NCBI GenBank assembly: GCA_902780865.1
Contig: CACZHC010000048.1
Span: 2,890-66,889 of the forward strand
Reading direction: 5' to 3'
From: an uncultured bacterium
GTDB taxonomy: Bacteria; Verrucomicrobiota; Kiritimatiellia; RFP12; UBA1067
DNA length: 64,000 nt
Below are positions 24,197-46,303 of the stretch, in pieces. The translations under genes were made by a program, and so were the position numbers. The notes below the pieces were generated by a model, which worked only from the letters and a program-made list of their open reading frames with translations, had not been told where the DNA came from and made no database searches. Numbering within the stretch: position 1 is the stretch's first letter; each line of letters begins with the position of its first letter.

Positions 24197-24338
24197 TTTT
24201 TCTTCAGCTTCGTTTTCTCGACACCTTTTTCACACAATGTTTTCAAGCCTTTTACAGCTTATCGACAGACTAGTGCACAGACAAATATTTCACTTCGAGC
24301 ACATCGAAGAGACTATTCGCCTATGTCCAATCGTTTGC

Positions 24339-24372
24339 ATTATACCACAAAACCCATTGCGTGGGGGAAAAA
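24339..24372 (-). promoter_or_regulatory. Candidate sigma70 promoter (extended -10 TGGTATAAT) for the giant-protein operon
   Basis: The minus strand reads gggttttgTGgTATAATgcaaacg, with TATAAT at 24339-24344. It lies about 140 nt upstream of the 24196 start. The -35 is weak or unclear. Confidence 0.4.
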
Positions 24373-24479
24373 ATTTGCGCTGCCGCGCGACCACGAACAC
24401 GGGCCTAAAGCCCGACACGAAATGACACGAAAAATTCCTTTCTGTGGCGGCAACTCATTGATGCGACTGATTTTGTGAG

Positions 24480-24960
24480 CTTTCATGTACCGAGACGTAG
24501 GCGCCCCATGCTTTTTTCGTGAAGCCCGCGAAGCGGGCGTTTTCGTGCGCCACGAAGGTGGTTTTCGTGACGCTGCGGCTTGTCGTGGGCCGAAGGCCAA
24601 AAGGACGCCGCGGCGCGTGGCGAAGGTCGTTCCCTCGTAGTGACCGAGGTTACTGGATGAAGCATCCAAGCGACCTTCTGGCCAACGCGCTGCCGCGAAC
24701 TTTCACGCGGCGGAACGCCGCACGACAAGCCGGCAGCATTTCGTGGTCGCGCGTCATTCGCCCGCGCCGGCAGGCGTCGGGTTGCCTGAGCGCGAGATGC
24801 ACCTGCGGCGAAGCCGTCAGGTCCCCCGACGAGCGAAGAGGAGCTTTGCGAAGCAAAGTCGCAAGAGGGTGCGCGCGAACCCCGAAGGGTATCCACCGAC
24901 CGAAGGTCGCTGCCGAAGGCAGTCTCTAGAGTGGTGCCGCAAGGGGCCGAGCGCAAACAC
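24480..24960. repeat. GC-rich non-coding field of short hairpins with TTTCGTG / TTCGTGGTCGCG motifs; related field at 35690-35960
   Basis: The motif tttcgtggtcgcgcgt occurs at about 24741 and about 35925, and ttcgtggtcgcg at about 35693. Many GAAG-loop hairpins are present (gcccgcgaagcgggc, gaccgaaggtc, ctgccgaaggcag). The ORFs here overlap each other and are R/A/G-rich. Confidence 0.5.
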
Positions 24961-24983
24961 TGTTTCCCAACCCTCTACACGCC

Positions 24984-26309
24984 CTACATATCCGCAATAG
25001 ACAGAAGCCCGGACTTCTGCCTAAGATTGCGCTTCTCGGGATTCTTCTCAAAAAACTTCTCGATCTTCTCCCTGAGCTTCGCGTCACTGTATCGTCCTGG
25101 GTTCGTCTTGACCTCAAAGAATGCTATTTCACCGCCAAGCTCGTCTTCGCACACCAAATCAATCTCTTCGGATCCCTTACGATCCCACCAGGCACCCATC
25201 TTGGCATACGACGTTGTCTCGGTGAACTTCCAGTGGAAATAGCGCTCTAAGGCATAGCCACTGAACACGTCGAAATCCCGCAATGCAATTTCACGCAGCT
25301 GTTCGTACCGCTCAAGCTCAATATAGCCCCTGTACTTGAAGACAAAGCGAAACCAGAACCGGAAAAAGCAGTCGTCGATCTGGTAATGGCAGTTCTTCCC
25401 CGTCGGCTTATCGAAAATCGGCTGCTTCTTCGATACTAACTGATATTGCTCTTCAAGTTTGGTGAGATAGCCATTGACGTCCACGCCAATAAGGTTCTTC
25501 AACTCCGCAGTAGTCGTAGCACCAGAAGCTATGGCCGAAAGAATCGTGAAGTATACGCCGTAATCCGGGCCGAACTCCTCGGCGAGTATGGCGCGACCTT
25601 CGGGCAGATACGACGATCCCGGCGAAAAGATGGTGTCGATCATCTGCCTGCGGGTGAGCGCCTTTGCCCCCGTCATCATGTTTACGTAACGTGCGACGCC
25701 TCCAGTCACCGTCCAGAGGGCAAGGAGGTCTTCGGGCGTGTAATCTGGCTTGAACTCTGACAGTATCTGCTTCAATAGAGAGACCTTGAACGGCTTGAGC
25801 GTAAAACTTGCCGTGTTGCGCCCGTACAAAGGTTCCCCGTCGTTAAAGAATATCTTATTCATCAATCTGTTTATGCTTCCGCACACCACCAGATTGATCT
25901 TTGAAGACGAATGATATTCATCCCATATTGCGGCAACCTGGCTGAACACAGCATCGTTAATTCTGTCAAATTCCTGAAACTCGTCGAGAACCACGGTGAA
26001 TCGTCTTGTCTGCGACGCTTTCATGATGATTTTAAACAAATCTGAGAAAGTTTCGCATGTACCAAGGATTCCAAGATTAAGAATCTGTTCAACTTCCGCC
26101 TGAAGTTCCCGACAAAGCATTCGTTCGCTTTGACGGGTAATCGGCAGATGCACATAGGGTATCACCCCATCATCAAGCGCATTGCGCAAAAGCGCCGTCT
26201 TGCCCACGCGCCGGCGACCAGTAATGACGACAAACTGCGCTTCTTCGGCTGAAATATCCCTCCACCTGCGGAGCATTTCGACCTCTTCCTCCCGTCCGAA
26301 AAACTTCAT
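24984..26309 (-). CDS. AAA+ ATPase (archaeal-type ATPase domain plus DUF234-like C-terminus), copy 1
   Basis: 441-aa ORF MKFFGREEEVEMLRRW...VVITGRRRVGKTALL (Walker A), VVLDEFQEF (Walker B). About 60% similar along its full length to the ORF at 44827..46117. Confidence 0.85.
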   Translation of the reverse strand: MKFFGREEEVEMLRRWRDISAEEAQFVVITGRRRVGKTALLRNALDDGVIPYVHLPITRQSERMLCRELQAEVEQILNLGILGTCETFSDLFKIIMKASQTRRFTVVLDEFQEFDRINDAVFSQVAAIWDEYHSSSKINLVVCGSINRLMNKIFFNDGEPLYGRNTASFTLKPFKVSLLKQILSEFKPDYTPEDLLALWTVTGGVARYVNMMTGAKALTRRQMIDTIFSPGSSYLPEGRAILAEEFGPDYGVYFTILSAIASGATTTAELKNLIGVDVNGYLTKLEEQYQLVSKKQPIFDKPTGKNCHYQIDDCFFRFWFRFVFKYRGYIELERYEQLREIALRDFDVFSGYALERYFHWKFTETTSYAKMGAWWDRKGSEEIDLVCEDELGGEIAFFEVKTNPGRYSDAKLREKIEKFFEKNPEKRNLRQKSGLLSIADM

Positions 26310-26365
26310 TGTCGCCCCCTTTTGAAAATGGTTGTTTTGAAAACGGCTGTTTTTAATCCGCGGAT

Positions 26366-26394
26366 ATTATGGCATTATTTAGCATCCTTGTCAA
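26366..26394 (-). promoter_or_regulatory. Sigma70 promoter TTGACA-17-CATAAT for ATPase copy 1 (shared promoter module)
   Basis: The minus strand reads ggattgacaaggatgctaaataatgccataatat. A 36-bp stretch is identical apart from 3 mismatches to 30441-30476, upstream of vapB. Confidence 0.55.
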
Positions 26395-26410
26395 TCCCCC
26401 GCAGGGTTTT

Positions 26411-26555
26411 ATTGGAAACAACTTTTTCATGGTGTGCGGGCTAACATGCCCGCACTTTCTTTTCTCGCCGCGAAACCTCGCGGCGCCCTCAAATCGCCGC
26501 GCTTGTTGCGCGGCGTAAAGAAGTTGTTTTTACAAGTTGTTTCAGTTGTTTCCCC
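26411..26555. repeat. Inverted-repeat-bounded hairpin cluster (ggaaacaac ... gttgtttcc) with GTTGTTT iterations
   Basis: ttggaaacaac at 26411-26421 faces gttgtttttacaagttgtttcagttgtttcc at about 26524-26555. Three GC hairpins lie between them (gtgcgggc..gcccgcac, gccgcga..tcgcggc, gccgcgc..gcgcggc). The GTTGTTT module recurs at 29521-29560 and 30491-30530. Confidence 0.45.
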
Positions 26556-26590
26556 TACACGTTCTGCATGTTCTACACGGCTAAAATCAC

Positions 26591-26617
26591 AAAAACCCGC
26601 GGCATTTCTGCCGCGGG
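26591..26617 (-). terminator. Intrinsic terminator hairpin (conserved module CCCGCGGC-loop-GCCGCGGG plus U-tract) after the hicB-like gene
   Basis: The minus strand reads cccgcggcagaaatgccgcgggttttt, an 8-bp GC stem followed by a T-run. The same module occurs at 28603, 28740, 29731 and 30936. Confidence 0.65.
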
Positions 26618-26644
26618 CGTTGATCCATTCTGATCTAATGGAAG

Positions 26645-26848
26645 TCATCCAGCTATTGCGGTGCGCCGCCCACGCATTGATAACTGCCACGCACTCGCAA
26701 GCCAAGCAGCAACGGCATCCTGAATCAGGGCGCGAACTTCCTCCAGCGTCTCGCCCTGCGTGACGCATCCGGGAAGCGACGGTACTTCCGCCCAATACCC
26801 AGTCTTAGGTGCGTTGCACTTGTGAATAATTGCTTTCAGACCATCCAT
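26645..26848 (-). CDS. hicB: HicB-like antitoxin-fold protein (short, possibly C-terminally truncated); no hicA partner seen
   Basis: 67-aa ORF. The segment GYWAEVPSLPGCVTQGETLEEVRALIQDAV matches the typical HicB/UPF0150 N-terminal motif. The tail AWQLSMRGRRTAIAG looks atypical. Confidence 0.6.
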   Translation of the reverse strand: MDGLKAIIHKCNAPKTGYWAEVPSLPGCVTQGETLEEVRALIQDAVAAWLASAWQLSMRGRRTAIAG

Positions 26849-26873
26849 ATATGCTCGCTTTCTTTGTGTGCGT

Positions 26874-26903
26874 AGTATAGCACATGCGCCGCCATCGCGT
26901 CAA
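26874..26903 (-). promoter_or_regulatory. Sigma70 promoter TTGACG-17-TATACT for the hicB-like gene
   Basis: The minus strand reads gttgacgcgatggcggcgcatgtgctatactacg, about 25 nt upstream of the ATG. Confidence 0.5.
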
Positions 26904-26975
26904 CGGTCGGCAAGATAAACCCCACTCTACTCGACCCCGAAACAAAAACCCGCGGCGGAAGTGCCACTGTTTTTG

Positions 26976-27250
26976 TTTAGGGTCACTTAGGGTCTATTAG
27001 CGTCATTTAGGGTCAATGTAGAGTCTTGAGCCCCTACCAGCCCCTACCAGCCCATAACCGACCCTAACCGACCCAACCAGACCCTAACTGACCCTAACCG
27101 ACTCTAACCGACCCAACCAGACCCTAACTGACCCTAACCGACCCTAACCGACCCAACCAGACTCTAACTTGACCCTAACCGACTCTAACCGACCCTAACC
27201 GACTCTAACCGACTCTAACCGACCCTAACTGACCCTAACCGACCCTAATA
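26976..27250. repeat. 10-bp phased tandem array: about 5 units TTAGGGTCNN, then about 22 units of the inverse GACYCTAACY, abutting the stop codon of the four-helix-bundle gene
   Basis: The sequence stays in register with the 10-base print blocks: accctaaccg acccaaccag accctaactg accctaaccg actctaaccg ... The orientation flips at about 27029. Confidence 0.9.
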
Positions 27251-28012
27251 CCCATAAATCCTCTTGACCTCCATGATCTTCCTCGCCCGCTCCCTATTGA
27301 CCTCCAGCATCGAGAGCCCATCCGTCTTGACATCCACCTTGCAATCAAAGCAGCGCCACTTATACTCCAAAACTCCATTACTACTCGTCGTCCCATCACT
27401 CATCAGTTTGCCGCATTTAGGGCACTTCACGCCATAGCTCTTCGCCTCTTTCATCGCCGCATCGCGATTCTTTGCCGCCGCCGCCTTGGCCACCGGCTTC
27501 ATCCGCCCACGCAAGTCACCAGACTCCTTAAACTGCTTCTCTAACGCCTCAAGCTGGCGATGGAGAATGTAATCTTCTTGTTTTAGCAGCACAATCGCCA
27601 TATTTGCGACCACTTCACCATCCCTCTGCTCGGCAATTGCGAGATAGGGGGCGGAGTCGAGATGCTCCTTTGCGAAGTTGCGGAGCCATGCGATTTCTTT
27701 TCCGTCCTTATCCCACTGTCTAAGTCGCCGAGTGCGGAGGTAGTCCTCGAAGTCAGTTAGGAGTTCCTTTAGGGAGGCCTTGGCGACATTGACGAGCTTG
27801 ATTTCGGTTTCGGCGTTGGTGGAGGAAGCGGCGACGCCTTCGGCGATATTTTGTTTGCCGCTGCGGGCGGCCTGGATCATTTGGTCGATGGTGCGGTCGC
27901 CTTTAGAGAGATATTTTTGGCAGAAGTGGTAGGTTAGGTCGAAGATGACTGTTGCTTTTTTAAAGGTCAGGAGTTCCTTATAGTTGCCTCGATTTTTCAA
28001 GATGATGTTCAT
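27245..28012 (-). CDS. Four-helix-bundle protein (23S rRNA IVS protein / Avd-like family) with extended C-terminus and CxxC...CxxC zinc ribbon
   Basis: MNIILKNRGNYKELLTFKKATVIFDLTYHFCQKYLSKGDRTIDQMIQAARSGKQNIAEG is the characteristic N-terminus of this family. The C-terminus carries KCPKCGKLM...WRCFDCKV. I prefer the ATG at 28012 (RBS aaaggaa) over the track start at 28039. Confidence 0.8.
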   Translation of the reverse strand: MNIILKNRGNYKELLTFKKATVIFDLTYHFCQKYLSKGDRTIDQMIQAARSGKQNIAEGVAASSTNAETEIKLVNVAKASLKELLTDFEDYLRTRRLRQWDKDGKEIAWLRNFAKEHLDSAPYLAIAEQRDGEVVANMAIVLLKQEDYILHRQLEALEKQFKESGDLRGRMKPVAKAAAAKNRDAAMKEAKSYGVKCPKCGKLMSDGTTSSNGVLEYKWRCFDCKVDVKTDGLSMLEVNRERARKIMEVKRIYGY

Positions 28013-28036
28013 TAGGGCCGTTCCTTTTTTTAGGGT

Positions 28037-28095
28037 CAATTAGGGTCGGTTAGAGTCGATTAGAGTCGATTAGGGTTTTAGAGTCTGATGGTTCA
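28037..28095. repeat. TTAGRGTC 10-bp units (about 6) immediately upstream of the four-helix-bundle gene
   Basis: ttagggtcaa ttagggtcgg ttagagtcga ttagagtcga ttagggtttt agagtctgat. Confidence 0.85.
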
Positions 28096-28195
28096 ATTGC
28101 GCTTATATGATACCATAGGAAGGCAGAGAGAAATGGGTCATGAATAGGTTTTTGGTGGGTCTTTTTTGACCCACAGCAATATCCCCCGACCGTCT

Positions 28196-28393
28196 CTAAA
28201 AGCGCCAAACTCGACCCTAAACCGACCCTACCAGACTCTAACCGACTCTAACTGACCCTACCAGACTCTAACCGACCCTAACTGACCCTACCAGACTCTA
28301 ACCGACTCTAACTGACCCTACCAGACTCTAACCGACTCTAACTGACCCTACCAGACTCTAACCGACCCTAACTGACCCTACCAGACTCTACCA
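28196..28393. repeat. Tandem array with 30-bp higher-order unit (3 x 10 bp: GACCCTACCA GACTCTAACC GACYCTAACT), about 6 copies
   Basis: gaccctaccagactctaaccgac[tc]ctaact repeats head to tail. It has the same 10-bp phase and word family as 26976-27250. Confidence 0.9.
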
Positions 28394-28602
28394 GCCCTTC
28401 CCGCTCCCCGCGAGAAGCCATGCCCTCCATTCGGAGAGGCCGTTCTTCACGAGAAACTTTGCGACTGCAAACCTTCGCTCCCGACTTCCTTCGCCCGCAC
28501 CCTCGCGGGTGCAAACTTGTCTTCTACTCTCGAGTTCTTCCTAACAGGTCTCTTGGAGATTTCCACTCCAGACCTTGTATCATGTCCTGCGTACAACAAA
28601 AA

Positions 28603-28624
28603 CCCGCGGCGTTTCTGCCGCGGG
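28603..28624 (-). terminator. Orphan copy of the conserved terminator hairpin module
   Basis: cccgcggcgtttctgccgcggg, preceded by caacaaaaa. No intact gene lies directly upstream on the minus strand. Confidence 0.45.
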
Positions 28625-28632
28625 CATGCCCG

Positions 28633-28669
28633 CTACCCTCAGGGTAGTTCCCTGCTACCCTCAGGGTAG
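28633..28669. promoter_or_regulatory. Two copies of a perfect 15-bp palindrome CTACCCTCAGGGTAG, 22 bp centre to centre (candidate operator)
   Basis: gCTACCCTCAGGGTAGttccctgCTACCCTCAGGGTAGt, read directly from the sequence. Confidence 0.5.
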
Positions 28670-28739
28670 TCGCCCTCGACCTCCGAGCTCATAACCCTAC
28701 CCGACTCTAACCAGACCCTAATCGACCCTAAAACAAAAA

Positions 28740-28761
28740 CCCGCGGCGTTTCTGCCGCGGG
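28740..28761 (-). terminator. Intrinsic terminator (conserved module) after the RelE/XRE pair
   Basis: The minus strand reads cccgcggcagaaacgccgcgggtttttgtttt. Confidence 0.6.
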
Positions 28762-28852
28762 CGTTGTTTATCTTATGCCATTGCGAGCGACGCCCTGCGT
28801 TTACGCCTCAAATTTGCGCCGCGATGAGCTTCGCGGGATTTATTCTTCTCTT

Positions 28853-29098
28853 TTACGCATTTGAAAACTGCAGCGGGTAGTCTTTGCCGCCTATTTCAAT
28901 CTGAAGCTTTAGAATACCGCCAAGTGCGCTGGAAATATGAAGGCGATCAGCAACCTCCACCTGCGTGACACCAAGCTCGCGGCGAATCTGCGACAAGACA
29001 TATTCGCGGTTCATATCTGAAGCCGCAGTTTCATTTGCCGCCCTGCGCTCTGGCGACATCTTATCACGCAAACGATTAAAGGAACGATGTCCGCTCAT
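28853..29098 (-). CDS. XRE-family HTH antitoxin (HigA-like), short variant
   Basis: 81-aa ORF MSGHRSFNRLRDKMSPERRAANE...LSQIRRELGVTQVEVADRLHIS. It overlaps the upstream toxin stop by 4 nt. It appears to lack about 25 aa relative to usual family members. Confidence 0.75.
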   Translation of the reverse strand: MSGHRSFNRLRDKMSPERRAANETAASDMNREYVLSQIRRELGVTQVEVADRLHISSALGGILKLQIEIGGKDYPLQFSNA

Positions 29099-29463
29099 GA
29101 TTTGTCCTCCTGTTTTATTTCTTTTAGATGTTCCTCAAATATACGCTCCGCTTTGGGCACATTTTCGATATACCACCGGTCATTTCCTGTCTTATCACCT
29201 CCAATAAGCAACAAAGCAGATCGAGCAGGATCAAAAGCATACAGAATTCTTATGGGATGCCCGTCGCTCTGGATGCGAAGCTCTCGCATTGCAAACCTTG
29301 CGCCATTGATTGCAGAGGAATACGGGAAGCCGAGCGTCGGGCCATGTTCTTCAAGAAGCATGACGACACGGTCGATATCGTCTTGCATCCCTTCCGCAAG
29401 TTCTACCCACCATGTCTCAAACTCATCAGTGTATTCAACTGTCCAATTTTTGTTCACGCACAT
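29095..29463 (-). CDS. RelE/ParE-superfamily toxin (phage Gp49-like, HigB-type)
   Basis: 122-aa ORF. WTVEYTDEFETWW...LLEEHGPTLGFPYSSAINGARFAMRELRIQSDGHPIRILYAFDPARSALLLIGGDKTGNDRWY is a textbook Gp49/RelE family sequence. Confidence 0.9.
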   Translation of the reverse strand: MCVNKNWTVEYTDEFETWWVELAEGMQDDIDRVVMLLEEHGPTLGFPYSSAINGARFAMRELRIQSDGHPIRILYAFDPARSALLLIGGDKTGNDRWYIENVPKAERIFEEHLKEIKQEDKS

Positions 29464-29493
29464 AGTATAGCATATTTCCTATATCGCGGTCAA
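29464..29493 (-). promoter_or_regulatory. Sigma70 promoter TTGACC-18-TATACT for the RelE/XRE operon
   Basis: The minus strand reads gattgaccgcgatataggaaatatgctatactatg. The transcript would be essentially leaderless. Confidence 0.45.
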
Positions 29494-29520
29494 TCGCCGT
29501 TCGCTGTGCCCTTGCGCTCT

Positions 29521-29689
29521 ATTGGAAACAACATAAACAACTTTTGAAAACAACTTTTTCTGTCTGGTAGGGGCGGCTCGGCACTCGCTTCGCTCGGCTT
29601 GGCTCGCTACAAATCGCGAGCCCCGCTTACGCGGCGGTTACCTCCGTGCCGTCCGCATACAACGGACGCCTCGGAGAGGCGTCCCTACC
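29521..29689. repeat. Intergenic repeat module: GTTGTTT-iteration block plus extended (124-nt) GGTAGGGGCG...CGTCCCTACC multi-hairpin element
   Basis: ttggaaacaacataaacaacttttgaaaacaactttttctgtct, then ggtaggggcggctcggcactcgc...cggacgcctcggagaggcgtccctacc. It is near-identical at both ends to 30491-30894. Confidence 0.8.
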
Positions 29690-29730
29690 AACACCATGCC
29701 CGGCTCGCTTTCACGCTCCATAAACAAAAA

Positions 29731-29752
29731 CCCGCGGCGTTTCTGCCGCGCG
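29731..29752 (-). terminator. Terminator module (slightly degenerate) 6 nt after the vapC stop
   Basis: cccgcggcgtttctgccgcgcgg, preceded by aaacaaaaa on the plus strand. Confidence 0.5.
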
Positions 29753-29757
29753 GCAAG

Positions 29758-30159
29758 TTAGCCAACAACTCTCTCCAACAATGGCACATTGCCAAAGTGA
29801 GCATCTAACGAATGCACCACCGCCCCTTTCGTGATTGCGCATGCCGCAATCCATAAGTCATTTTGCGGAATTGGCGTTCCGTTTGCCTTCAGAACTCTAA
29901 AAATCCTGGCATACGCATTTGCGACATCTTCAGTAACTCCCACAATCTTTACTGCCGTGGAATCAAGAAACATCTCAAGCGCCGAAAGCTGTTGGTGACC
30001 TACAGCCGTTTCGACAGCGACTCCAGCCTTGTATTCACCGATCACAACAGTGGGAACAAGAATTTGCTCATAAGTCGACACTACTTTCGCGATTTTCTCG
30101 TTCCCGCGAAGGAACTTTATCAAAACATTTGTATCGAGCAATAGCGGCATCATTTCCAC
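29758..30159 (-). CDS. vapC: PIN-domain ribonuclease toxin VapC (copy 1)
   Basis: 133-aa ORF. LLLDTNVLIKFL and NDLWIAACAI are PIN motifs. The GTG/ATG start overlaps the antitoxin stop. Confidence 0.85.
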   Translation of the reverse strand: MEMMPLLLDTNVLIKFLRGNEKIAKVVSTYEQILVPTVVIGEYKAGVAVETAVGHQQLSALEMFLDSTAVKIVGVTEDVANAYARIFRVLKANGTPIPQNDLWIAACAITKGAVVHSLDAHFGNVPLLERVVG

Positions 30160-30410
30160 ATCTCCTCGTCAATCGTGCCAAATGCTGACTGCGTCGCCTC
30201 AAGCTCGCTACAATCTGTATCTTTTAGAATGCCGCAGAATTTCCCAAGATCATTCCGCGGCTCCGTGGCACGACAGCGCGCAAATCCGATAATGGGGGCG
30301 ATAATTTCCTTTAGCGCAGCATTGACGCTTACTCCCTTTTTGTCGGAATACGCTCGAATTGCATATATGAAATCACTCTCAGCCCTAAAAGTTAATGCGG
30401 CAATAGCCAT
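30150..30410 (-). CDS. vapB: VapB-type antitoxin (copy 1)
   Basis: 86-aa ORF directly upstream of, and overlapping, vapC. It shares the C-terminal IDEEMWK and the RAY.D..G.S.N core with the ORF at 36371..36616. Confidence 0.65.
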   Translation of the reverse strand: MAIAALTFRAESDFIYAIRAYSDKKGVSVNAALKEIIAPIIGFARCRATEPRNDLGKFCGILKDTDCSELEATQSAFGTIDEEMWK

Positions 30411-30442
30411 GACATCCTCCTTGCATCATTTTTATGCATCAT

Positions 30443-30471
30443 ATTATGGCATTATTTTGCATCACTGTCAA
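30443..30471 (-). promoter_or_regulatory. Sigma70 promoter TTGACA-17-CATAAT for vapBC-1 (shared promoter module)
   Basis: The minus strand reads ggattgacagtgatgcaaaataatgccataatatg. It is near-identical to 26366-26400. Confidence 0.55.
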
Positions 30472-30490
30472 TCCCCTTCAGTGTTATATT

Positions 30491-30894
30491 GGAAAACAAC
30501 ATAAACAACATTTGAAAACAACTTTTTCTGTCTGGTAGGGGCGGCTCGGCACTCGCGTTGCTCGGCTTGGCTCGCTACAAACCGCGAGCCCCGCTTACGC
30601 GGCGGTTACCTCCGTGCCGACCGCGCACACCGGACGCCCTGGTAGGGGCGGCACTCCGTGCCGACCGCGCACCCACAAATATGGGCGTGGCGCAATTGTC
30701 TTCTCATGCGCCCCTCTACCCCAACTCTCGCATGCGCCCGATTTTTTCATTTCCTGCGGCGCCTGCCGCAGCGGTCACGCCGGAGGCGTGCCCCTACCAG
30801 CGAACCCATCGGTAGGGGCGGCAACACCGCTTCGGTAGGGGCGGCACCCCGTGCCGTCCGCGTACAACGGACGCCTCGGAGAGGCGTCCCTACC
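30491..30894. repeat. Expanded intergenic repeat cluster: GTTGTTT block plus several nested GGTAGGGGCG / CCCCTACC half-elements
   Basis: ggtaggggcgg occurs at about 30534, 30640, 30813 and 30829. cccctacc occurs at about 30790 and 30887. The ends match 29521-29689. Confidence 0.8.
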
Positions 30895-30935
30895 AACACC
30901 ATGCCCAGCTGGCTTTCACGCTCCATAAACAAAAA

Positions 30936-30957
30936 CCCGCGGCGTTTCTGCCGCGGG
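30936..30957 (-). terminator. Intrinsic terminator (conserved module) after the 843-aa gene
   Basis: The minus strand reads aaagcccgcggcagaaacgccgcgggtttttgttt. Confidence 0.65.
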
Positions 30958-30984
30958 CTTTGTTTTGTGTTCTTCAGTGATCTC

Positions 30985-33516
30985 TTACTGGAGGAACGCC
31001 TTGAAGAACGTACCGGTCGAGCTCTCGGTCTTGCAACCGACGTCAGAGTACTGCTTCACAACAACCTCGCCGTTGTAGCCGCGCTCGTTATAGCTCGTCG
31101 TCGTCGCCGTGACCCACTTCGACTGCGTGGTATCGTAGCTAATCGACGTGAACTTGAACGCCGCCTTCGCATCTGCAACCTCGCTCGGCTTGCAGTTCAG
31201 GAGGTAAGCTTCCTCGTTCGAGCCAGACGCATCCGGGAAGTCAGCAGCACTGATTTCAGCATACGCCGCCCAAGTGTCATACTTGGTCTTTTCCGTATCG
31301 TCGATGTAGCTCGGATAGGTCTTACCACCCTTCTCCGTCGGACCAGGAATCGCGACAGTGCCAGCCTCAGAGACCTCGATGGTGATCTCACCATCCTGGC
31401 CAGCCGTCCAGCCGGTCGGCGGCGTGGCATACTCATAGTTCGCGGCGGGCGTCGCGGTGATAACGATCGTCTGACCGACCGTGACCGTAAGGACGTCATT
31501 ATCGGGCGTAATCGCCGATCCACCAACCTTGTAGGCCGCGGCATACGTCGTGTTGTTGGTCGGAATCACGGTGACCGTGTAGGTGCCAAGCGTCTGCACC
31601 GTCGGACCAGGAATCGCGACCGTGCCAGCCTCAGAGACCTCGATGGTGATCACACCCTCGGAGAGCGTCCAGCCGGTCGGCTCCTCAGCATACTCGTAGC
31701 CCGAGTTCGGCGTCGCGGTGATTACGATCGTCTGACCGACCGTGACCGTAAGGACGTCGTTATCAGGCGTAATTGCCGTGTTATCCGACTTGTATGCCGC
31801 AGTGTAGGTCGCATTCGCAGTCGGCGTCACCGTGACCTGGTAGGTTCCAATCGGCTGCGCACCGCCGCCAACCTGGAAGTAGTTGTTTTCAATTGCCGTT
31901 GCTGTTACACTACCGTCAACAAAGCTGTTGAGGTAGAAGTTCGTATCGCCAATTTCCTCTGGGCAGTTGAGGAACTTGCCACCAAAGAGCGTGAGACCAA
32001 AAGACTCGGAATCAATGACAATTGCGGCATCAAAAGAACCTCCATAGATGGTTGTAGTTCCGCCGCCAATGATGACCGCGCCTGATCCGCCAGTAACATG
32101 GCCAATCTCGGCCGTGCTATTGGTGATAATAAGGTTGGCAGCACCATTGTTGATGCCATATTCGGTACCCGTTATCGTCTTGCCTGCAAGGTCAATGATG
32201 ATATTCCCTCCGTCACTCAGCTCAATGTCACTATGCATAGCGTCAGCTGTATAATTCGCAACAAGCTTAAGGGTACCATAGGTATCGCCCGACTTTAGTG
32301 CCGCAGCTACGGCATCCGAAATCTTGTCATACTTTACTCCATTGACCTCAAAGTACGGGAACATCGACACGATGTTGCATATCTCACCAGAAGCAAGATC
32401 AACAAAGCTGCTGGTTGCAGAATCCCACGAACCATTCTTGTCAGTTGTGAATGTGCCAGCTTCCCAACCAGACGCAAACGTTACGTCAACGAGGACTGCA
32501 CCTTTGTCGGGATTAATATCTACGCTTCCCGCAGTGCCAGCAGAAAAGCCAGCGACCGACTCACCATTGAGCGTGAGAGTCGCAACATGCTCATCCCATG
32601 TGACGGTAACCACCGAAGACTCCTGAATGAAGCTCGGCTTTGTCGCCGTGAACGAAACATCGTCAATGAAGCCATTGCCGGAGAAGGCAACAGAGGAAAT
32701 AGTGCTGCCGCCAATATCTTCCGCCGCAACTGCGCTCGGGAAGAGCGCGTGCTTGCCGGAGTTGTAGAACGTCTGGGCAAGAGCATTTAGGGTGCCGAAG
32801 CCAGCATCAACATCCGTGGAATATTCAAGCGTCTTCGTCATATTGCCATCAAGGTAAATGACGAAACCGACATTGCCGTCACCAACATCGGCAATCGTGC
32901 GAACCGTAAGACGATGCCACTCATCTTTGTTGAAGCCAGCGGGAACCGCTGCAACGTAGTTCGTCTGGACGATTTCCTGCCCGCCAACAAAGCCAGCGCG
33001 GATGACGAAGTTGGTGTAGCCCTCGTCGCCTTCCTCGGCCTCGTGCTCGACATACTCAATCGCAATCTTGTCGCCACCAGTCAGATCCTCAGCAAAGGCC
33101 TCATCGGCTGCCGTGAACTTCACGAGCGTGTCGAGGTAGATGCCATCGCTGCCAATGTCAACACCAGTAACGGACGAAGCCCCAGCGTTGGGAAGCGCAG
33201 TACGAACAAGCGGAGCCGTCGTATCAATTTGAAGGGACTTCGTGTTTGCCTGGTTCTGGTTGGCAAACAGATCAGGCCGACTCACGCTTTGACCCGCGAC
33301 ATCATTGGTAATCGCACCGAGCTCGTCGGTCGCAGGGGCCGTGGAGTACCAATAGAATTCGCTTCCGCTAGGGTCGCCCGAATCATCTTTGTTGACAACA
33401 CCGCCAACATCTACGGGGCCTTCGGTCAAGGCCTCAAAACTTGTGCCAGTTGGAAGGTCACCGAACGAGAACATCGTCGTCGCGGCGGCTGCCAATGCAA
33501 TCATTAGTTTTTTCAT
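30985..33516 (-). CDS. Secreted 843-aa protein: LamG-like N-domain, beta-helix-like middle, two 88-aa Ig-like tandem repeats
   Basis: Signal peptide MKKLMIALAAAATTMFSFG. WHRLTVRTIADVGDGNVGFVIYLDGN is a LamG-like strand pattern. The repeat GTYxVTVxPT.N.TY.AAYK....AITPDNDVLTVTVGQTIVITATP occurs twice. Confidence 0.85.
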   Translation of the reverse strand: MKKLMIALAAAATTMFSFGDLPTGTSFEALTEGPVDVGGVVNKDDSGDPSGSEFYWYSTAPATDELGAITNDVAGQSVSRPDLFANQNQANTKSLQIDTTAPLVRTALPNAGASSVTGVDIGSDGIYLDTLVKFTAADEAFAEDLTGGDKIAIEYVEHEAEEGDEGYTNFVIRAGFVGGQEIVQTNYVAAVPAGFNKDEWHRLTVRTIADVGDGNVGFVIYLDGNMTKTLEYSTDVDAGFGTLNALAQTFYNSGKHALFPSAVAAEDIGGSTISSVAFSGNGFIDDVSFTATKPSFIQESSVVTVTWDEHVATLTLNGESVAGFSAGTAGSVDINPDKGAVLVDVTFASGWEAGTFTTDKNGSWDSATSSFVDLASGEICNIVSMFPYFEVNGVKYDKISDAVAAALKSGDTYGTLKLVANYTADAMHSDIELSDGGNIIIDLAGKTITGTEYGINNGAANLIITNSTAEIGHVTGGSGAVIIGGGTTTIYGGSFDAAIVIDSESFGLTLFGGKFLNCPEEIGDTNFYLNSFVDGSVTATAIENNYFQVGGGAQPIGTYQVTVTPTANATYTAAYKSDNTAITPDNDVLTVTVGQTIVITATPNSGYEYAEEPTGWTLSEGVITIEVSEAGTVAIPGPTVQTLGTYTVTVIPTNNTTYAAAYKVGGSAITPDNDVLTVTVGQTIVITATPAANYEYATPPTGWTAGQDGEITIEVSEAGTVAIPGPTEKGGKTYPSYIDDTEKTKYDTWAAYAEISAADFPDASGSNEEAYLLNCKPSEVADAKAAFKFTSISYDTTQSKWVTATTTSYNERGYNGEVVVKQYSDVGCKTESSTGTFFKAFLQ
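31339..31866. repeat. Intragenic tandem duplication, 2 x 264 bp
   Basis: cggaccaggaatcgcgac[ac]gtgccagcctcagagacctcgatggtgatc starts both units, at 31339 and 31603. Differences between the units are of all base types. Confidence 0.85.
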
Positions 33517-33611
33517 TTTGTTACTCCTGATTTGTCTTTGAAATTTGTGTGCACACTTTTTCTAGACACGCACATCATACCAAATTTCTTTCTCCCCCGC
33601 AAGGGGGAAAA

Positions 33612-33646
33612 TTAAAAAATTTTCACCCGCCTGGGGGAAGCGGGTG
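33612..33646 (-). terminator. Intrinsic terminator after abiEii
   Basis: The minus strand reads cacccgcttcccccaggcgggtgaaaatttttt. Confidence 0.55.
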
Positions 33647-33677
33647 GAGGATGGGGAGAACTGTGGGAGAGGGCGAG

Positions 33678-34721
33678 TTAAGAGTGGGAAAGCATTCGAT
33701 CCAATAGCACAAGGTAGGAGAATGCCTCCCGGCTACGATCCCGAAAGTTTTTCAGCCTTAGGAGATCTGGACTTGTCAACTTTTCATCAAAATACTTATC
33801 AGGATCAGAAACAGACTCGAAAGAACGGTTCTTGATTAGACATTGAGCCGCGTACATGACCTTGACAGCCTGAAGGGCGGCCGCCTCCGCAGAATAGCTT
33901 TCAGAGAAAATATGTCCACTCATGCCCCTGCACCCTTTCACATACGCCCGATAGTCGCTTGGCGATATTCTGCCTCTTGTCGCTATGCATAGCGCCGATT
34001 CGTATGTGTCCAACAGCGTCTCTTCGGGCGAGACTGACAGCCCCCGGTAGGCAATCTCACGCAACGCCACGGCATAATATGTCTTCCTGACCGCTTCAAA
34101 ATCTTCGACAGCGTCAAAGAGCGTTGCAACATCATAAAACTGCTTCATGATCTCCATATCCTTGTCAACGCCGAGCGGAATGCCAATCGTATGCGGGGCA
34201 AAAGCTGTAAGTTTGTCGCCAAGAATGCTGTCGACATCCGGGATGTGGACATTTAATGGCTCACCCTCGGTCAGCAACAATCCATTCTCTATCGGTCGTT
34301 CGACTATGTTTGTGTACTGGGCCTCCTCAAACAATATATCAAGCAGAATATAAGACGGCCGTCCCGCCACTGGCGAATCATATGAAAACTTGAAGTGGCG
34401 TTTCTCGATTGCACCGTGCTTCTTGCGAATCTGCTCGGTGCTCGTCACGAATGGGAAGATTACCTGTGCCTTTTCTATGAATGCCTCTACATCTATCTCA
34501 GGAGCCACAACAATGTCTATGTCCGTCGACAGCCGTCTGGGGCTTTTGACGAGGAACATGAGACATGTCCCGCCCTTGAAGACGAATGGTAAACCGACTC
34601 GTGCAAGCGCCTCCAGCAAACCGCAGGCATATACTGTCCGCTCCAACAAAAGCGGATCGCGATGATACTGCCCGCGCAGGGAATTTACATGATCAAGCGT
34701 GAAATTTTCTTTTTTTAACAT
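33678..34721 (-). CDS. abiEii: AbiEii/AbiGii-family nucleotidyltransferase toxin (type IV TA / abortive infection)
   Basis: 347-aa ORF. LPFVFKGGTCLMFL...RLSTDIDIVV is the NTase signature of DUF1814/AbiEii. It sits in a low-GC segment. Confidence 0.85.
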   Translation of the reverse strand: MLKKENFTLDHVNSLRGQYHRDPLLLERTVYACGLLEALARVGLPFVFKGGTCLMFLVKSPRRLSTDIDIVVAPEIDVEAFIEKAQVIFPFVTSTEQIRKKHGAIEKRHFKFSYDSPVAGRPSYILLDILFEEAQYTNIVERPIENGLLLTEGEPLNVHIPDVDSILGDKLTAFAPHTIGIPLGVDKDMEIMKQFYDVATLFDAVEDFEAVRKTYYAVALREIAYRGLSVSPEETLLDTYESALCIATRGRISPSDYRAYVKGCRGMSGHIFSESYSAEAAALQAVKVMYAAQCLIKNRSFESVSDPDKYFDEKLTSPDLLRLKNFRDRSREAFSYLVLLDRMLSHS

Positions 34722-34724
34722 AAG

Positions 34725-35534
34725 TCACCTCGTCAAAAGATTGACGCCAGCATGTTCGGTCAGGAGTATCTTCAATCGACCTTCTGCATTTCTTCGACGG
34801 GCATAGCGGAACAACCTGCTTTCATCGATTGCGTAGCGCGCAAATATCTCCGCACAGGCACCTGGCAAATCTGCTCCATTGAAGTTTTGCCGGATAAGCG
34901 GTTCCTCAAACAAGTCAACCAGCCACTTTTCCACCGGAGCCATTCCATTTGACTCCATGTTTCGTGGTTCTTCACTCAGCCCATCGAGAAGAACAACCAT
35001 GTTTTCAACTCTATATCGGAAGTACTCTTCCTCTGTCGGCTTCAACAGGACTCGCCCAGAGAACCGCTTATGCAGTACTTGGAACAGGAAATCGGACATC
35101 CCATTCCCAACATAGACAAAGATTGTGTTAATAGCAACCAAATGATTGACAAACTCATTCATCTGGCGGGTTTCAAACACTGAGATTCGCATATCTGGAC
35201 ATTTTGACTGGATGTAGTCAACAATTTCCCTGCAACTCTCAGATGGTTGTGCCACATAACGAGTCCTACCATTTCTAGTCAGCATATACTGATTACGCCC
35301 TACACGAACAACCAATCCAGATCTTATAGCAGCCCTCAGACGACGATCTAATGTTGATTTAGACACAGTAGACCCTCGCTCAGAAAACAAGATAAATAGG
35401 TCTTTATGCGAGAAAATGCCTTTTCCCGCAATATTAGTTAATATATTATCAAATCCATCCATCTGACAGTTACGGCAAATCTGATGCTTATTTGCCGAAG
35501 ATGTCACATAGTATAGCAGTTTTATCCTTGCCAT
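34725..35534 (-). CDS. abiEi: AbiEi-like transcriptional antitoxin (wHTH N-domain); the start is possibly the internal ATG at about 35462
   Basis: It lies immediately upstream (3-nt gap) of abiEii, the classical operon order. The N-terminal SKSTLDRRLRAAIRSGLVVRVGRNQYML is wHTH-like. Confidence 0.6.
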   Translation of the reverse strand: MARIKLLYYVTSSANKHQICRNCQMDGFDNILTNIAGKGIFSHKDLFILFSERGSTVSKSTLDRRLRAAIRSGLVVRVGRNQYMLTRNGRTRYVAQPSESCREIVDYIQSKCPDMRISVFETRQMNEFVNHLVAINTIFVYVGNGMSDFLFQVLHKRFSGRVLLKPTEEEYFRYRVENMVVLLDGLSEEPRNMESNGMAPVEKWLVDLFEEPLIRQNFNGADLPGACAEIFARYAIDESRLFRYARRRNAEGRLKILLTEHAGVNLLTR

Positions 35535-35689
35535 GTCAACCCACCTGGGGGGAAGAGTTTTTAGGTGCCCGCCTAATCTTTAATATTCCCATCGCTTGTC
35601 CATAGTGGGTAATTCTGGATTTCCCATGGGGACCCAATGGTGGTCATCCATTTGGCAGTTGCGGCAATTCTAACGCGTGTTCGTGGTCG

Positions 35690-35960
35690 CGAGCAACATA
35701 ATGCCAACTGAATAACGCGGAGCATTTCCTGTTGCTTTCGTGTAGCCTTCGCGCGGACGCATCGCGCGAAGGCTGTTCGTGTACCGTGAAGACGGTTTTC
35801 GTGTCCGGCGGGCATGGCGAGCCCGACAGGGCGCGTCGTATGCGCCGCGGCGGACGAGACAACGTCTCAAGTCCGGACGCGGTGCAGACGGCGCAAATCG
35901 CCGCAGGCGATTCGACATGCCCGGCCGGCTTTCGTGGTCGCGCGTACGCGCCAAACTAGC
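35690..35960. repeat. GC-rich hairpin field with TTCGTGGTCGCG motifs (relative of 24480-24960)
   Basis: gtgttcgtggtcgcgagc, ggctttcgtggtcgcgcgtacgcgcc, and an 11-bp stem agccttcgcgc..gcgcgaaggct. Confidence 0.5.
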
Positions 35961-35969
35961 GACTAGCGA

Positions 35970-36380
35970 CTAACCGCAATAGCGCCAATCGAGAAAGGGG
36001 ATTGCTTCAAAATGACGATCGGATGAATACAAAATCCCTCTTGCCGACATAGCCTCTGCCGCGATCCAAATGTCATTGGTCGGGATCATCGTTCCCTGCT
36101 TTCGCAGCGCGTCGAAAATCTTGGCGTAGAACCGTCCCGTCTCTTCGTCTGGGTGGTGGACCGAAGTTCCCGGCGTGGCGAGAAGGTCTTCGAGCAGCGC
36201 CCGCTCTTTGTTCGCCGCCTCTCCGCGCCGCGCAATCCCTGCGAGCAGTTCCGCGTATGTTGCCAATGGGATTACCAGCCGAGAAGAGTTCATTACCGCT
36301 CGGCGCACCTCGCGGCTCGTCCCCTTGAAGAGATGAATGACGGCGCTTGTATCGAGAATTGCCGTTGGATTCACTTCCAC
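35970..36380 (-). CDS. vapC: PIN-domain toxin VapC (copy 2)
   Basis: 136-aa ORF. ILDTSAVIHLF and NDIWIAAEAM are PIN motifs. It is a paralog of 29758..30159. Confidence 0.85.
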   Translation of the reverse strand: MEVNPTAILDTSAVIHLFKGTSREVRRAVMNSSRLVIPLATYAELLAGIARRGEAANKERALLEDLLATPGTSVHHPDEETGRFYAKIFDALRKQGTMIPTNDIWIAAEAMSARGILYSSDRHFEAIPFLDWRYCG

Positions 36381-36616
36381 ATCTCCTCGTCAATTTTCCG
36401 CATTTCACTGATTTCGCGGGTCCAGGCGCTTGAGTCAATTTCCGGCATCGCCCCATAGAACTTGCTCCAGGGCGTCGCATTGTCTTTCTTGGAAAGGCCG
36501 AGAATAGGCGTTAGAATGTCTTTGACCGTCTGGTTGATGCTTTTCCCCAACCCATCGGCGTATGCACGCAGCGCCTCGGCAAACGGCTCGTCGGCATGTA
36601 TCGTCATCGTTACCAT
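36371..36616 (-). CDS. vapB: VapB-type antitoxin (copy 2)
   Basis: 81-aa ORF overlapping vapC-2. It ends KIDEEMWK, like copy 1. Confidence 0.65.
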   Translation of the reverse strand: MVTMTIHADEPFAEALRAYADGLGKSINQTVKDILTPILGLSKKDNATPWSKFYGAMPEIDSSAWTREISEMRKIDEEMWK

Positions 36617-36656
36617 GATTTACTCCGCGATTCACTGATTTGTTTTATGATTCACT

Positions 36657-36685
36657 ATTATCTCATAATCCCCCGCCGAAGTCAA
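36657..36685 (-). promoter_or_regulatory. Sigma70 promoter TTGACT-17-GATAAT for vapBC-2
   Basis: The minus strand reads ctattgacttcggcgggggattatgagataatag. Confidence 0.45.
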
Positions 36686-36840
36686 TAGGGGGCAGGGGGC
36701 GGGGGGGCAGGAGTTAGGGGTTAGGGGGCGGCGGAGGTGGAGCGAAGGTCCGAGCGAGGGGATACGGCGTATTCGCCGAGGGATCCCCGAGGAGGAGCCT
36801 TCGGCCACCGCAGACGCCTACCACATTAAAGCGGTATTTT

Positions 36841-36895
36841 GGGGACAGACCCTCCGATAGCCAATAAAATCAAGGGTTCAAGAGGGTCTGTCCCC
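36841..36895. repeat. Hairpin repeat GGGGACAGACCC-(28-nt loop with CCAATAAAATCAAGGGTTC)-GGGTCTGTCCCC, copy 1
   Basis: It is almost identical to 46249-46303. Both sit just after the stop of the upstream minus-strand gene. Confidence 0.8.
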
Positions 36896-36920
36896 GAGTT
36901 TTTGCGCACCCAACCATCCT

Positions 36921-44789: not shown

Positions 44790-44826
44790 AGTACGAGTGA
44801 CACAGTAACGGTGGCAGGGGGGGGCA

Positions 44827-46117: not shown

Positions 46118-46248
46118 AAAGCAACTCCTTCGGCACCCCCGTTACGAAATGTCTGTTTCGTTAACGGTCGTTTCGGTTGCAAATGGTATCATATTATTCA
46201 CCTACCCGTCAATAGGGATTTTAGACCCCCGCCCTTGCACCCACCTTT

Positions 46249-46303
46249 GGGGACAGACCCCACGATAGCCAATAAAATCAAGGGTTCGAAGGGGTCTATC
46301 CCC
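46249..46303. repeat. Hairpin repeat GGGGACAGACCC...GGGGTCTATCCCC, copy 2
   Basis: See 36841-36895. Confidence 0.8.

Follow-up and report, generated by a model that had tools for sequence, protein, structure and literature searches.

A variable island of defence and toxin-antitoxin cassettes delimited by a shared terminator in uncultured Kiritimatiellae

The stretch of DNA described here is a 64-kb piece of a contig (CACZHC010000048.1, assembly GCA_902780865.1) from an uncultured bacterium of the Kiritimatiellae. It is called the window below, and all positions refer to it. Between 24.9 and 36.7 kb the window carries an array of small units: an ATPase gene, a HicB-like gene, a gene for a four-helix-bundle protein, a RelE/XRE pair, two VapBC pairs, a gene for an 843-aa protein (sec843) and an AbiEi/AbiEii pair (Table 1). 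A short hairpin, T, is found behind most of these units, and the locus is a variable cassette and defence island delimited by this shared terminator. An original prediction, made from the letters of the window, had described co-oriented defence and toxin-antitoxin (TA) cassettes built from reused promoter, hairpin and terminator modules. All named array genes do lie on the minus strand, and profile searches returned the families that had been given, with the ATPase matching PADLOC PDC-S27.

Table 1. Features of the cassette array and its surroundings, with positions in the window.
Feature	Position	Strand	Remarks
Giant Gly-rich/Laminin_G_3 protein gene, 3381 aa	14051-24196	minus	Pfam Gly_rich_2 + Laminin_G_3
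Giant-gene promoter/leader	24218-24398	minus	TGTGGTATAAT extended -10; conserved between species, 80-96% identity in L006, L008, L014, L021, L030, L047
Spacer module	24481-24988		TTTCGTG-repeat region 24481-24889 + CTACACG 'C' block 24933-24990
ATPase_2 + DUF234 ATPase, candidate defence gene	24984-26309	minus	PADLOC PDC-S27, 8e-47; without T
Promoter module P copy 1, ATPase	26364-26400	minus	TTGACA-N17-CATAAT, extended -10
MITE-like structured spacer	26412-26585		inverted GTTGTTT arms 26412-26428 and 26518-26555 around three GC hairpins
T1, loop variant A	26596-26617	minus	downstream of HicB-like gene
HicB-like/UPF0150 cassette	26645-26903 (gene 26645-26848)	minus	promoter TTGACG-N18-TATACT, 26874-26903
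Chimeric half-terminator	26942-26975	minus	right arm + T-tract identical to T
Four-helix-bundle-suffix gene within 10-bp arrays	26977-28394 (gene 27245-28012/28039)	minus	23S_rRNA_IVP type
Probable group II intron remnant, internally deleted	28386-28602	minus	directly after T2
T2	28603-28624	minus	intron remnant directly after
T3	28740-28761	minus	downstream of XRE; short array fragment follows, 28694-28731
RelE(Gp49-like)/XRE TA cassette	28853-29493	minus	promoter TTGACC-N18-TATACT, 29464-29493
XRE	28853-29098	minus	RelE partner
Gp49/RelE	29095-29463	minus	
GTTGTTT block 29521-29560 + REP hairpin	29521-29700		GGTAGGGGCGG at 29566
T4	29731-29752	minus	downstream of VapC-1; one arm mutated, 6-bp stem left
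VapBC-1 cassette	29758-30476	minus	promoter module P copy 2, 30441-30476
VapC-1 (PIN toxin)	29758-30159	minus	
VapB-1 (antitoxin)	30150-30410	minus	
GTTGTTT block 30491-30530 + REP hairpin cluster	30491-30900		
T5	30936-30957	minus	downstream of 843-aa gene
sec843 gene, 843 aa, with leader	30985-33649 (ORF 30985-33516)	minus	conserved promoter/leader module 33461-33649
AbiEi/AbiEii cassette (type IV TA/abortive infection)	33678-35539	minus	promoter TTGACA-N18-TATACT, 35510-35539
AbiEii	33678-34721	minus	
AbiEi	34725-35534	minus	
VapBC-2 cassette	35970-36685	minus	promoter TTGACT-N17-GATAAT, 36657-36685; without T
VapC-2 (PIN)	35970-36380	minus	
VapB-2	36371-36616	minus	
'H' module	36837-36901		12-13-bp stem GGGGACAGACCC...GGGTCTGTCCCC, conserved 28-nt loop

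The hairpin T, CCCGCGGC-GTTTCT-GCCGCGGG, was found at the five positions where the original prediction had placed it (26596, 28603, 28740, 29731 and 30936), with 0-1 mismatch. On the gene strand it reads as an A-tract followed by the hairpin CCCGCGGC-AGAAAC-GCCGCGGG and by TTTTTGTTTT. The stem comprises 8-9 bp of GC pairs (up to 12 bp with the flanking tracts), the loop 4-6 nt, and a U-tract follows. A second T-run is present on the opposite strand, so that the A-tract on the other side extends the stem. These features are those of a canonical intrinsic terminator, which is predicted to work in both directions because an A-tract stands on the side opposite TTTTTGTTTT. For comparison, 45 related loci (numbered with the prefix L) were collected by requiring an exact T and, together with the window segment, gave 46 sequences of 257 kb in total, all of which were oriented and mapped. 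In these sequences T lies 5-116 nt (median 28) past stop codons. Its commonest context is the sec843 family, which accounts for 28 of the 81 T copies, and TA genes account for at least 27. Most units of the window end in T; the ATPase, VapBC-2 and AbiE units do not, and the AbiE unit has a terminator of its own, unlike T, at 33624-33646.

No other copy of T exists in the 64 kb, even when 3 mismatches are allowed, and shuffled sequences give an expectation of 0. Among 185,579 species-representative genomes, the exact 23-mer of T was found in only 12 stretches, nine of which, from seven genomes, are Kiritimatiellae-labelled or belong to window-related rumen metagenome-assembled genomes (MAGs). 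A Kiritimatiellae-type representative genome holds 1-4 copies, on one or two contigs. A scan of metagenomes added 36 stretches, marked by gene content and homology as relatives of the window's lineage, and the viral contigs of IMG/VR gave zero matches. T therefore marks this type of locus and is no genome-wide repeat. As such, the 23-mer is a specific probe, by which 48 related cassette loci were retrieved from public data. Behind 24 sec843 genes the mean identity of T is 97%, a figure biased upward by the exact-T requirement, whereas the C-termini of the encoded proteins have a median identity of 38% or cannot be aligned. Three other roles for T were considered. A DNA uptake sequence (DUS) was rejected, as T is low in copy number and confined to the locus, and so was a clustered regularly interspaced short palindromic repeat (CRISPR), as the copies are irregularly spaced (137-1654 nt) with genes in the intervals. 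Action of a REP-associated tyrosine transposase (RAYT) on T is unlikely, since T has no GTAG head of the kind seen in repetitive extragenic palindromes (REPs). Short tandem repeats of the GGAGTY type abut T in L023 and L025.

Of the genes in the 46 sequences, 153 could be named, and every one of these is co-oriented with T. In a typical array an H hairpin, where present, is followed by a DUF234 ATPase gene, a sec843 gene and T, then by a number of TA cassettes each with its T, and finally by a giant Gly-rich gene, before which the four-helix-bundle unit is sometimes found. The repertoire of the related loci comprises VapBC, RelE(Gp49)/XRE, an HI1420-type antidote with a Gp49 killer and Phd/ParE, as well as a second RelE/XRE type, HicB, AAA_14/DUF4143 ATPases and AbiEi. 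When the sequences on either side of 80 T junctions were clustered, 36 gene-side classes and 32 downstream classes were found in 65 combinations. The class of HicB 3' ends is joined to six downstream contexts, for example, and one downstream context is joined to nine gene ends. The sequence that is independent of context at T is limited to the stem-loop and its flanking tracts, about 30-46 nt. The loop variants (A or G) and the length of the tract (4A or 5A) were compared with the flanks, and they offer too few informative sites to place a crossover. On a smaller scale than at T, junctions were likewise found at the C, H, G and P modules; the 3' end of the ATPase gene, for instance, meets different neighbours via the CCCTACA of the C block.

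The identity between loci changes from gene to gene. In L031 the HicB cassette has 97.7% identity, against only 68-69% for the p1282 and p193 genes, and L036, a locus that is otherwise unrelated, has the p356 gene at 99.8%. Fragments of the ATPase and RelE genes are 98% identical in L014 and L021, while the giant protein there is about 40% identical (aa). In L050, identity ranges from 70% to 97%, gene by gene. The closest relative that differs in structure, L030 (giant gene 96% identical), has the HicB-T cassette before and not after the four-helix-bundle unit and has no ATPase cassette. Judged from these comparisons, cassettes have been exchanged between genomes with T as the main junction, since cassettes of 97-99% identity stand in backgrounds of 40-85% and their order is changed in L030. 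The direction and route of such transfer are matters of interpretation. The shuffling at shared spacers that had been proposed from the window is borne out by the relatives, which show gain, loss and re-ordering at these places, chiefly at T.

An identical order in related strains would have spoken against shuffling, and such an order was found among assemblies of the same strain; L030 differs. A protein exactly matching the ATPase is encoded on several metagenome contigs in ENA and Logan, which are 99.4-100% identical to the window. Four assemblies of this one strain, from different samples, have the same gene content and order as the window, and the same-strain contigs differ only in the copy number of a 10-bp array and by an in-frame indel of 66 nt within XRE. 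The locus is stable at strain level, and as the four assemblies are collinear, shuffling is slower than strain-level divergence.

Besides T, the array is built from several other intergenic modules. The six best matches to sigma-70-type promoters in 13.5 kb are all on the minus strand, have an extended -10 and stand directly before six units, namely AbiEi, vapB-1, the ATPase, vapB-2, RelE and HicB. These six units are autonomous transcription units, as each has its own strong, near-consensus sigma-70-type promoter directly upstream. The 36-bp promoter module (P) that had been reported with 3 mismatches between the ATPase and vapB-1 was confirmed. Its copies (26364-26399 and 30441-30476) differ at three of 36 positions and are 87% identical over 55 nt, and TTGACA-N17-CATAAT with the extended -10 is present in both. 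The C block overlaps the stop codon of the ATPase gene and serves as a junction in L014. The adjoining spacer (24481-24889) is 93-97% identical in L008, L014, L021 and L035 at differing positions in the array, whereas the neighbouring genes are far more diverged. Dense TTTCGTG/CACGAAA repeats with small hairpins fill two GC-rich non-coding stretches, 24360-24900 and 35640-35960; these may represent a non-coding RNA or another REP-like family.

The three GTTGTTT blocks of the original prediction are all present (26518-26555, 29521-29560 and 30491-30530), with the copy at 26.5 kb inverted relative to the others. This copy belongs to a spacer resembling a miniature inverted-repeat transposable element (MITE), which is followed by a C-like block (26552-26570). 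The spacer folds with -104 kcal/mol (z = -7.6 against shuffles), and copies of 86-93% identity were found in L006, L015, L021 and L036. The spacer at 30491-30900 is an expanded version of the one at 29521-29750 (repeat matches of 94% and 97%). Hairpins of the type GGTAGGGGCG(G) occur at 29566-30844 and again at 46.4-52.1 kb between housekeeping genes, with 18 matches in the window against 0.9 expected. These elements are palindromic and extragenic, have GTAG at the 5' end and form long clusters in L017 and L020; they are generic REPs. Their reported positions were correct, but they are no cassette-specific module, since they also lie between housekeeping genes. The objection that the repeated modules might be generic thus applies to GGTAGGGGCG alone and not to the locus-restricted T. 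Their likeness to REPs and bacterial interspersed mosaic elements (BIMEs) with a RAYT consists of the GTAG start, the palindromes, the tandem and inverted clusters and a RAYT-like neighbour in L015. This likeness does not extend to T, and the window itself has no RAYT gene. The neighbour in L015 is a 166-aa open reading frame (ORF) flanked by REPs, which scored 74 bits with NF047646 (cut-off 80) and 22.2 bits with Pfam Y1_Tnp (cut-off 23).

The H module carries a tRNA T-loop-like GGGTTCGAA in its loop and has a second copy in the window at 46246-46303. A 41-nt stretch of it is 100% identical across species, and it was found in L009, L012, L015, L034 and others, where it usually stands upstream of DUF234/DUF4143 ATPase genes. 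H has no match in Rfam and is not a canonical terminator. The recurrent order of H, DUF234 ATPase, sec843 and T may form a functional unit. Two DUF234 ATPase genes stand in tandem upstream of sec843 in L012 and L016, and the window has a second ATPase_2/DUF234 paralogue beyond the array (44765-46117), which is preceded by an H module and REPs.

The degenerate copy of T that had been suspected near 26950 was located at 26942-26975 and is a chimera. A count made by hand gave 8 mismatches to T within the left 14 nt, whereas the right arm and T-tract had 0. For the left arm and loop, homology was found to the sequence located after the four-helix-bundle arrays of L006 and L030. The crossover appears, by eye, to lie at a 6-nt microhomology, GCCGCG. 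T has also been a target of a group II intron. The probable remnant behind T2 keeps about 150 nt of the 5' end and about 94 nt of the 3' end, and has lost the reverse transcriptase (RT) ORF and most of the ribozyme. It scored 27.1 bits with Rfam group-II-D1D4-3, below the gathering score of 32, and aligns at 86-96% to both ends of an intron in L049. The latter is intact (125.8 bits, with an RVT_1 + GIIM ORF) and starts 8 nt past the T stem. The 5' end of the intron directly follows T in four gene contexts, those of the window, L026, L031 and L049. Group II introns that target terminators or attC sites have been described (PMC1702495, PMC3001079), and class IIC introns are in the habit of inserting just downstream of terminator hairpins (PMC1702495). 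The insertion site after T matches this habit, and it is this site, not phylogeny, that indicates the IIC subclass here.

The original prediction had compared the array with an integron without a visible integrase. The likeness is greatest to sedentary chromosomal integrons and to clusters of attC sites lacking integron-integrases (CALINs), such as the superintegron of Vibrio cholerae with its V. cholerae repeats (VCR). Both are arrays of small co-oriented cassettes in which one conserved hairpin repeat stands 3' of each cassette, and in both many cassettes are TA pairs with their own promoters. In both, relatives differ in which cassettes they have and in how these are ordered, the junctions falling at the repeat, and both are targeted by a terminator- or attC-seeking group II intron. 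The differences are equally clear. The array has no IntI within 64 kb (which CALINs lack by definition), and T consists of a perfect GC hairpin of 22 nt and a U-tract, whereas an attC site is an imperfect structure of 50-150 nt with R''/L''/L'/R' boxes. In addition, a strong promoter of its own is found before six units of the window and not before TA pairs alone, whereas integron cassettes mostly have no promoter and are read from a shared Pc promoter; no attI/Pc platform can be identified, and the array uses further modules besides T as junctions.

Searches for the machinery of integrons agree with these differences. No recombinase, resolvase or transposase family was found among the non-nested ORFs of at least 150 aa in the window (Pfam), in accordance with the missing integrase of the original prediction. 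In about 230 kb of related loci, where representatives of the ORF clusters were inspected by eye and ten of them by a Pfam scan, none was recognised except for the RAYT-like ORF of L015, a transposase fragment in L008 and the intron RT of L049. No RYYYAAC/GTTRRRY pair of the attC type (6/7 complementary, span of 52-157 nt) exists on either strand of 24197-36900, and a literature search found no integron arrays in Kiritimatiellae. An integron mechanism is therefore unsupported, given the missing integrase and attC signature, the six promoters and the nature of T as an ordinary terminator. The analogy holds for the layout (co-oriented, followed by a repeat, variable) but not for the mechanism. 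At the upstream edge of the array in L008 (positions 1-696, gene-forward) lies a partial ORF of an ISNCY/IS481-like DDE transposase.

The explanation preferred here, with somewhat more confidence than doubt, is that portable intergenic modules recombine through homologous or short-homology events, while TA pairs stabilise the array. T, the CTACACG, GTTGTTT, H and promoter modules and the REPs would provide about 30-200 nt of portable identity between unrelated cassettes. DNA from co-resident relatives, or from a sister copy, would recombine at these modules in a RecA-type reaction or, alternatively, by short-homology or template-switch events at the hairpin. Such events could insert, delete, replace or re-order whole units, and the same recombination would keep the T copies homogeneous. 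Addictive TA pairs would counter-select deletion between direct T repeats. General recombination fits better than one dedicated site, as junctions are also found at other modules and the chimeric terminator points to a 6-nt microhomology.

Several points weigh against this explanation. The invariant part of T measures only about 30-46 nt, close to the shortest length at which RecA recombination is efficient; this limit is that of E. coli and may not be that of this phylum. In T, loop and stem are equally conserved, which is more than a terminator needs and could mean that the loop is bound by a sequence-specific protein. Collection of loci by exact T inflates both the conservation of T and its dominance among junctions. 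Short metagenome contigs make up most of the comparison, and assembly could have produced some of the joins across repeats as chimeras. Finally, direct evidence of ongoing exchange is lacking, as the four same-strain assemblies are collinear.

An alternative is that T is the site of a dedicated recombinase, unlinked or of an unrecognised family, by which T-bearing circles would be excised and re-inserted as in integrons. The layout of chromosomal integrons and CALINs fits this idea, and the core of T has an 11-6-11 inverted arrangement (AAACCCGCGGC-GTTTCT-GCCGCGGGCTT), a type of layout that tyrosine recombinases use. The near-invariance of loop and stem behind genes of less than 40% identity, the resemblance of the copy at 26942-26975 to a hybrid of half-sites and the homing of a terminator/attC-targeting intron to T would also be expected. 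Against it, no recombinase was found in the 64 kb or recognised among the ORFs scanned from the related loci, and T has no R''/R' signature of attC. Its identity as a terminator already accounts for the stem and both tracts. Junctions are also found beyond T, six units have strong promoters of their own, and the ATPase, VapBC-2 and AbiE units have no T. A dedicated enzyme is accordingly judged unlikely, and we are just as doubtful of its stronger form, in which T would be the recombination site of an unrecognised cassette-capture system of the Kiritimatiellae (a 'terminator integron') with a recombinase that is unlinked or belongs to a new family.

Mobility could instead reside in the spacers, with T as the end of non-autonomous MITE- or REP-like composites that landed behind many genes while the cassettes stayed in place. 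The inverted GTTGTTT arms and three hairpins of 26412-26622 (z = -7.6), the recurrence of this spacer at 86-93% behind different genes, the REP clusters and the RAYT-like gene (NF047646, 74 bits) in the arrays, and the several combinations of the C, G and H modules are all compatible with this. However, T alone meets the 32 downstream contexts, abutting promoters included, so that the shared unit is a terminator of about 40 nt. The transfer of genes is required by whole coding cassettes of 97-99% identity in backgrounds of 40-85%. As T is also low in copy number and restricted to the locus, unlike MITEs and REPs, and as no target-site duplications were seen by eye, mobile spacers are an improbable explanation. 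Equally improbable is strictly vertical descent, by which a large ancestral T array would have been pruned in each lineage by deletions between T copies, with no horizontal exchange. Direct T repeats 0.1-1.7 kb apart are an obvious substrate for deletion, L014 holds truncated cassettes (RelE residues 68-122 and ATPase residues 232-441), and arrays are deleted in L047. Neither the placing of HicB before or after the four-helix-bundle element nor the cassettes of 98-99.8% identity in 40-85% backgrounds is explained in this way. That much of the re-assortment consists of chimeric metagenome contigs joined across repeats is very improbable. It is true that the loci come mostly from short-read metagenome or MAG contigs, and that several contigs end 60-220 nt from T, which indicates that assemblers struggle there. 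Yet the arrangement of the window was obtained in four independent assemblies from different samples, and other arrangements recur in independent samples (L009/L034/L039, L014/L019/L021, L042/L044 and L017/L020/L051). Moreover, contig names of the form 'k141_' imply a final k-mer that exceeds the invariant T (about 40 nt) in length.

Recombination at portable modules has counterparts elsewhere. In the minimal mobile elements of Neisseria, at DUS- and Correia-type repeats and in the hotspots of defence islands, cassettes are exchanged by homologous recombination at conserved flanks. Different cassettes occupy the same slot, short terminator or promoter repeats provide the homology, and no recombinase encoded by the element is needed. 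In the present array, by contrast, about 30-200 nt of homology follow most units, so to lie between one cassette and the next, and permit internal re-ordering, and T is restricted to the locus, unlike DUS and Correia-type repeats, which are genome-wide. The pdif (Xer) modules of Acinetobacter plasmids are also rich in TA pairs and are re-assorted between replicons at short palindromic sites with a 6-nt centre. pdif sites alternate in orientation, whereas in each locus analysed all T copies point the same way; the present locus is chromosomal and near the origin, and the arms of T are GC-rich and look unlike the dif consensus.

The locus thus displays integron-like modularity without integron machinery, in that autonomous defence and TA units are re-assorted at one short repeat in an uncultured rumen phylum. 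If general recombination suffices, shared terminators and promoters would be a simple and overlooked way to keep defence islands modular. If a dedicated enzyme exists, this would be a new cassette system and a living example of arrays built on terminator hairpins instead of attC. It would then also be relevant to an older proposal, by which terminators gave rise to attC sites and cassettes via group IIC introns.

As for the individual cassettes, the TA and abortive-infection pairs consist of adjacent or overlapping small toxin and antitoxin ORFs, with PIN twice, Gp49/RelE once and AbiEii with AbiEi; the VapB and XRE partners were assigned from position, size and homologues (HTH_3). VapBC-1 has copies of 81-83% identity in L008 and L035 and VapB/VapC homologues at the protein level (62-77% aa) in L009, and VapBC-2 has copies of 90-92% identity in L012 and L050. 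The HicB-like gene is an orphan, as a HicA partner is absent, and copies of its cassette with 98% identity are found at other array positions in L030 and L031. Copies of the ATPase in L014 and L021 are 98% identical and truncated at the N-terminus. The XRE gene has a 66-nt in-frame deletion (22 codons) at 28930/28931 compared with every copy from other assemblies or species, which reduces the protein from 103 to 81 aa. This deletion lies between two stretches that are conserved with HTH_3 homologues, and reflects either a genuine variant of the antitoxin or a mistake in assembly. The G-rich tract GGGGGCAGGGGGCGGGGGGGCAGGAGTTAGGGGTTAGGGGGCGG lies at 36690-36740, upstream of the vapB-2 promoter, and echoes the TTAGGG motif of the arrays.

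The 843-aa protein has a hydrophobic, signal-peptide-like stretch at the N-terminus as judged by eye, and is putatively secreted. Sequence searches of Pfam, NCBIfam and PDB gave no match for it. Members of the family have diverged strongly (31-51% identity); the leader module, compared across many loci, shows 79-88% identity. Within the gene, a tandem duplication of about 264 nt (31330-31858, copies 78-92% identical) gives rise to two repeated domains.

The four-helix-bundle protein matched TIGR04258 (45.2 bits, cut-off 40) and TIGR02436 (32.6 bits, cut-off 24), scored 31.2 bits with PF05635 (cut-off 33.8) and had no match in a sequence search of PDB. Its gene is enclosed by 10-bp tandem arrays of TTAGGGTCNN in both orientations (26977-27017, 27032-27248, 28030-28076 and 28212-28394). 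About 18 copies lie upstream, and 5 inverted copies abut the start codon in the apparent 5'-UTR; on the 3' side, about 21 copies run from the stop codon onward and are followed by 4 inverted ones. The copies at the start codon (28030-28076) and those on the 3' side form a 47-nt inverted repeat of 94% identity around the ORF. The same architecture was found in L006, L026, L030, L047 and L053 (a 72%-identical homologue), and L059, L065 and L066 also belong to the loci with this gene and flanking repeats. The copy number of TTAGGGTCNN varies between near-identical strains, and close homologues are typically found on contigs of about 1 kb that break off within the arrays. At about 55-60% identity over about 70% of the query, three distant homologues, among them one labelled Muribaculaceae and one labelled Prevotellaceae, have 2-8 periodic TTAAGGTC-like repeats of 9-10 nt beside the ORF. 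Among viral contigs the array pattern was detected in one, which had three copies, lacked a four-helix-bundle gene and was judged uninformative.

This unit resembles the intervening sequences (IVS) of 23S rRNA genes, where a PF05635-type ORF is likewise enclosed by terminal inverted repeats able to form a long stem. It differs from them in its place between protein-coding cassettes and not inside an rRNA gene, in arms that are 10-bp tandem arrays of variable copy number, and in a protein with a TIGR04258 suffix domain and an extra CxxC...CxxC tail. A literature search found no description of repeats around genes for 23S IVS proteins. By this analogy, the unit may be an IVS-like selfish element outside rRNA; alternatively, the repeats may have an autoregulatory role or form a structure for RNase III.

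The DNA of the island has about 50% G+C and its flanks about 62%. On the downstream side the array is bounded by the giant gene, a conserved boundary whose homologues follow arrays in L006, L010, L014, L020 and L021, and further in L030, L037, L047 and L053. As part of the preferred explanation, and at the same slightly better than even confidence, 24.9-36.7 kb is regarded as the part that varies within a lineage-specific cassette island on the chromosome of rumen and gut Kiritimatiellae, upstream of the giant gene, which is taken as one for a surface protein. A recent origin from a plasmid or phage is unsupported. With 26.3-31 kb as the query, a phage collection gave no match, and a plasmid collection gave only weak similarity to the RelE gene in two plasmids. 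A scan for tRNA and tmRNA genes found none in the window, so that no integration site of the tRNA type is evident, and a search against Rfam found no rRNA genes there. At gathering and E-value thresholds, Rfam gave nothing relevant apart from the sub-threshold intron fragment. As dnaN, dnaA and gidA/mnmG lie at 56423-61309, about 20-30 kb from the cassette region, both this island and the genes for giant proteins stand near the origin. In the related locus L017, a sec843-T unit likewise lies about 8 kb downstream of a dnaA-dnaN pair.

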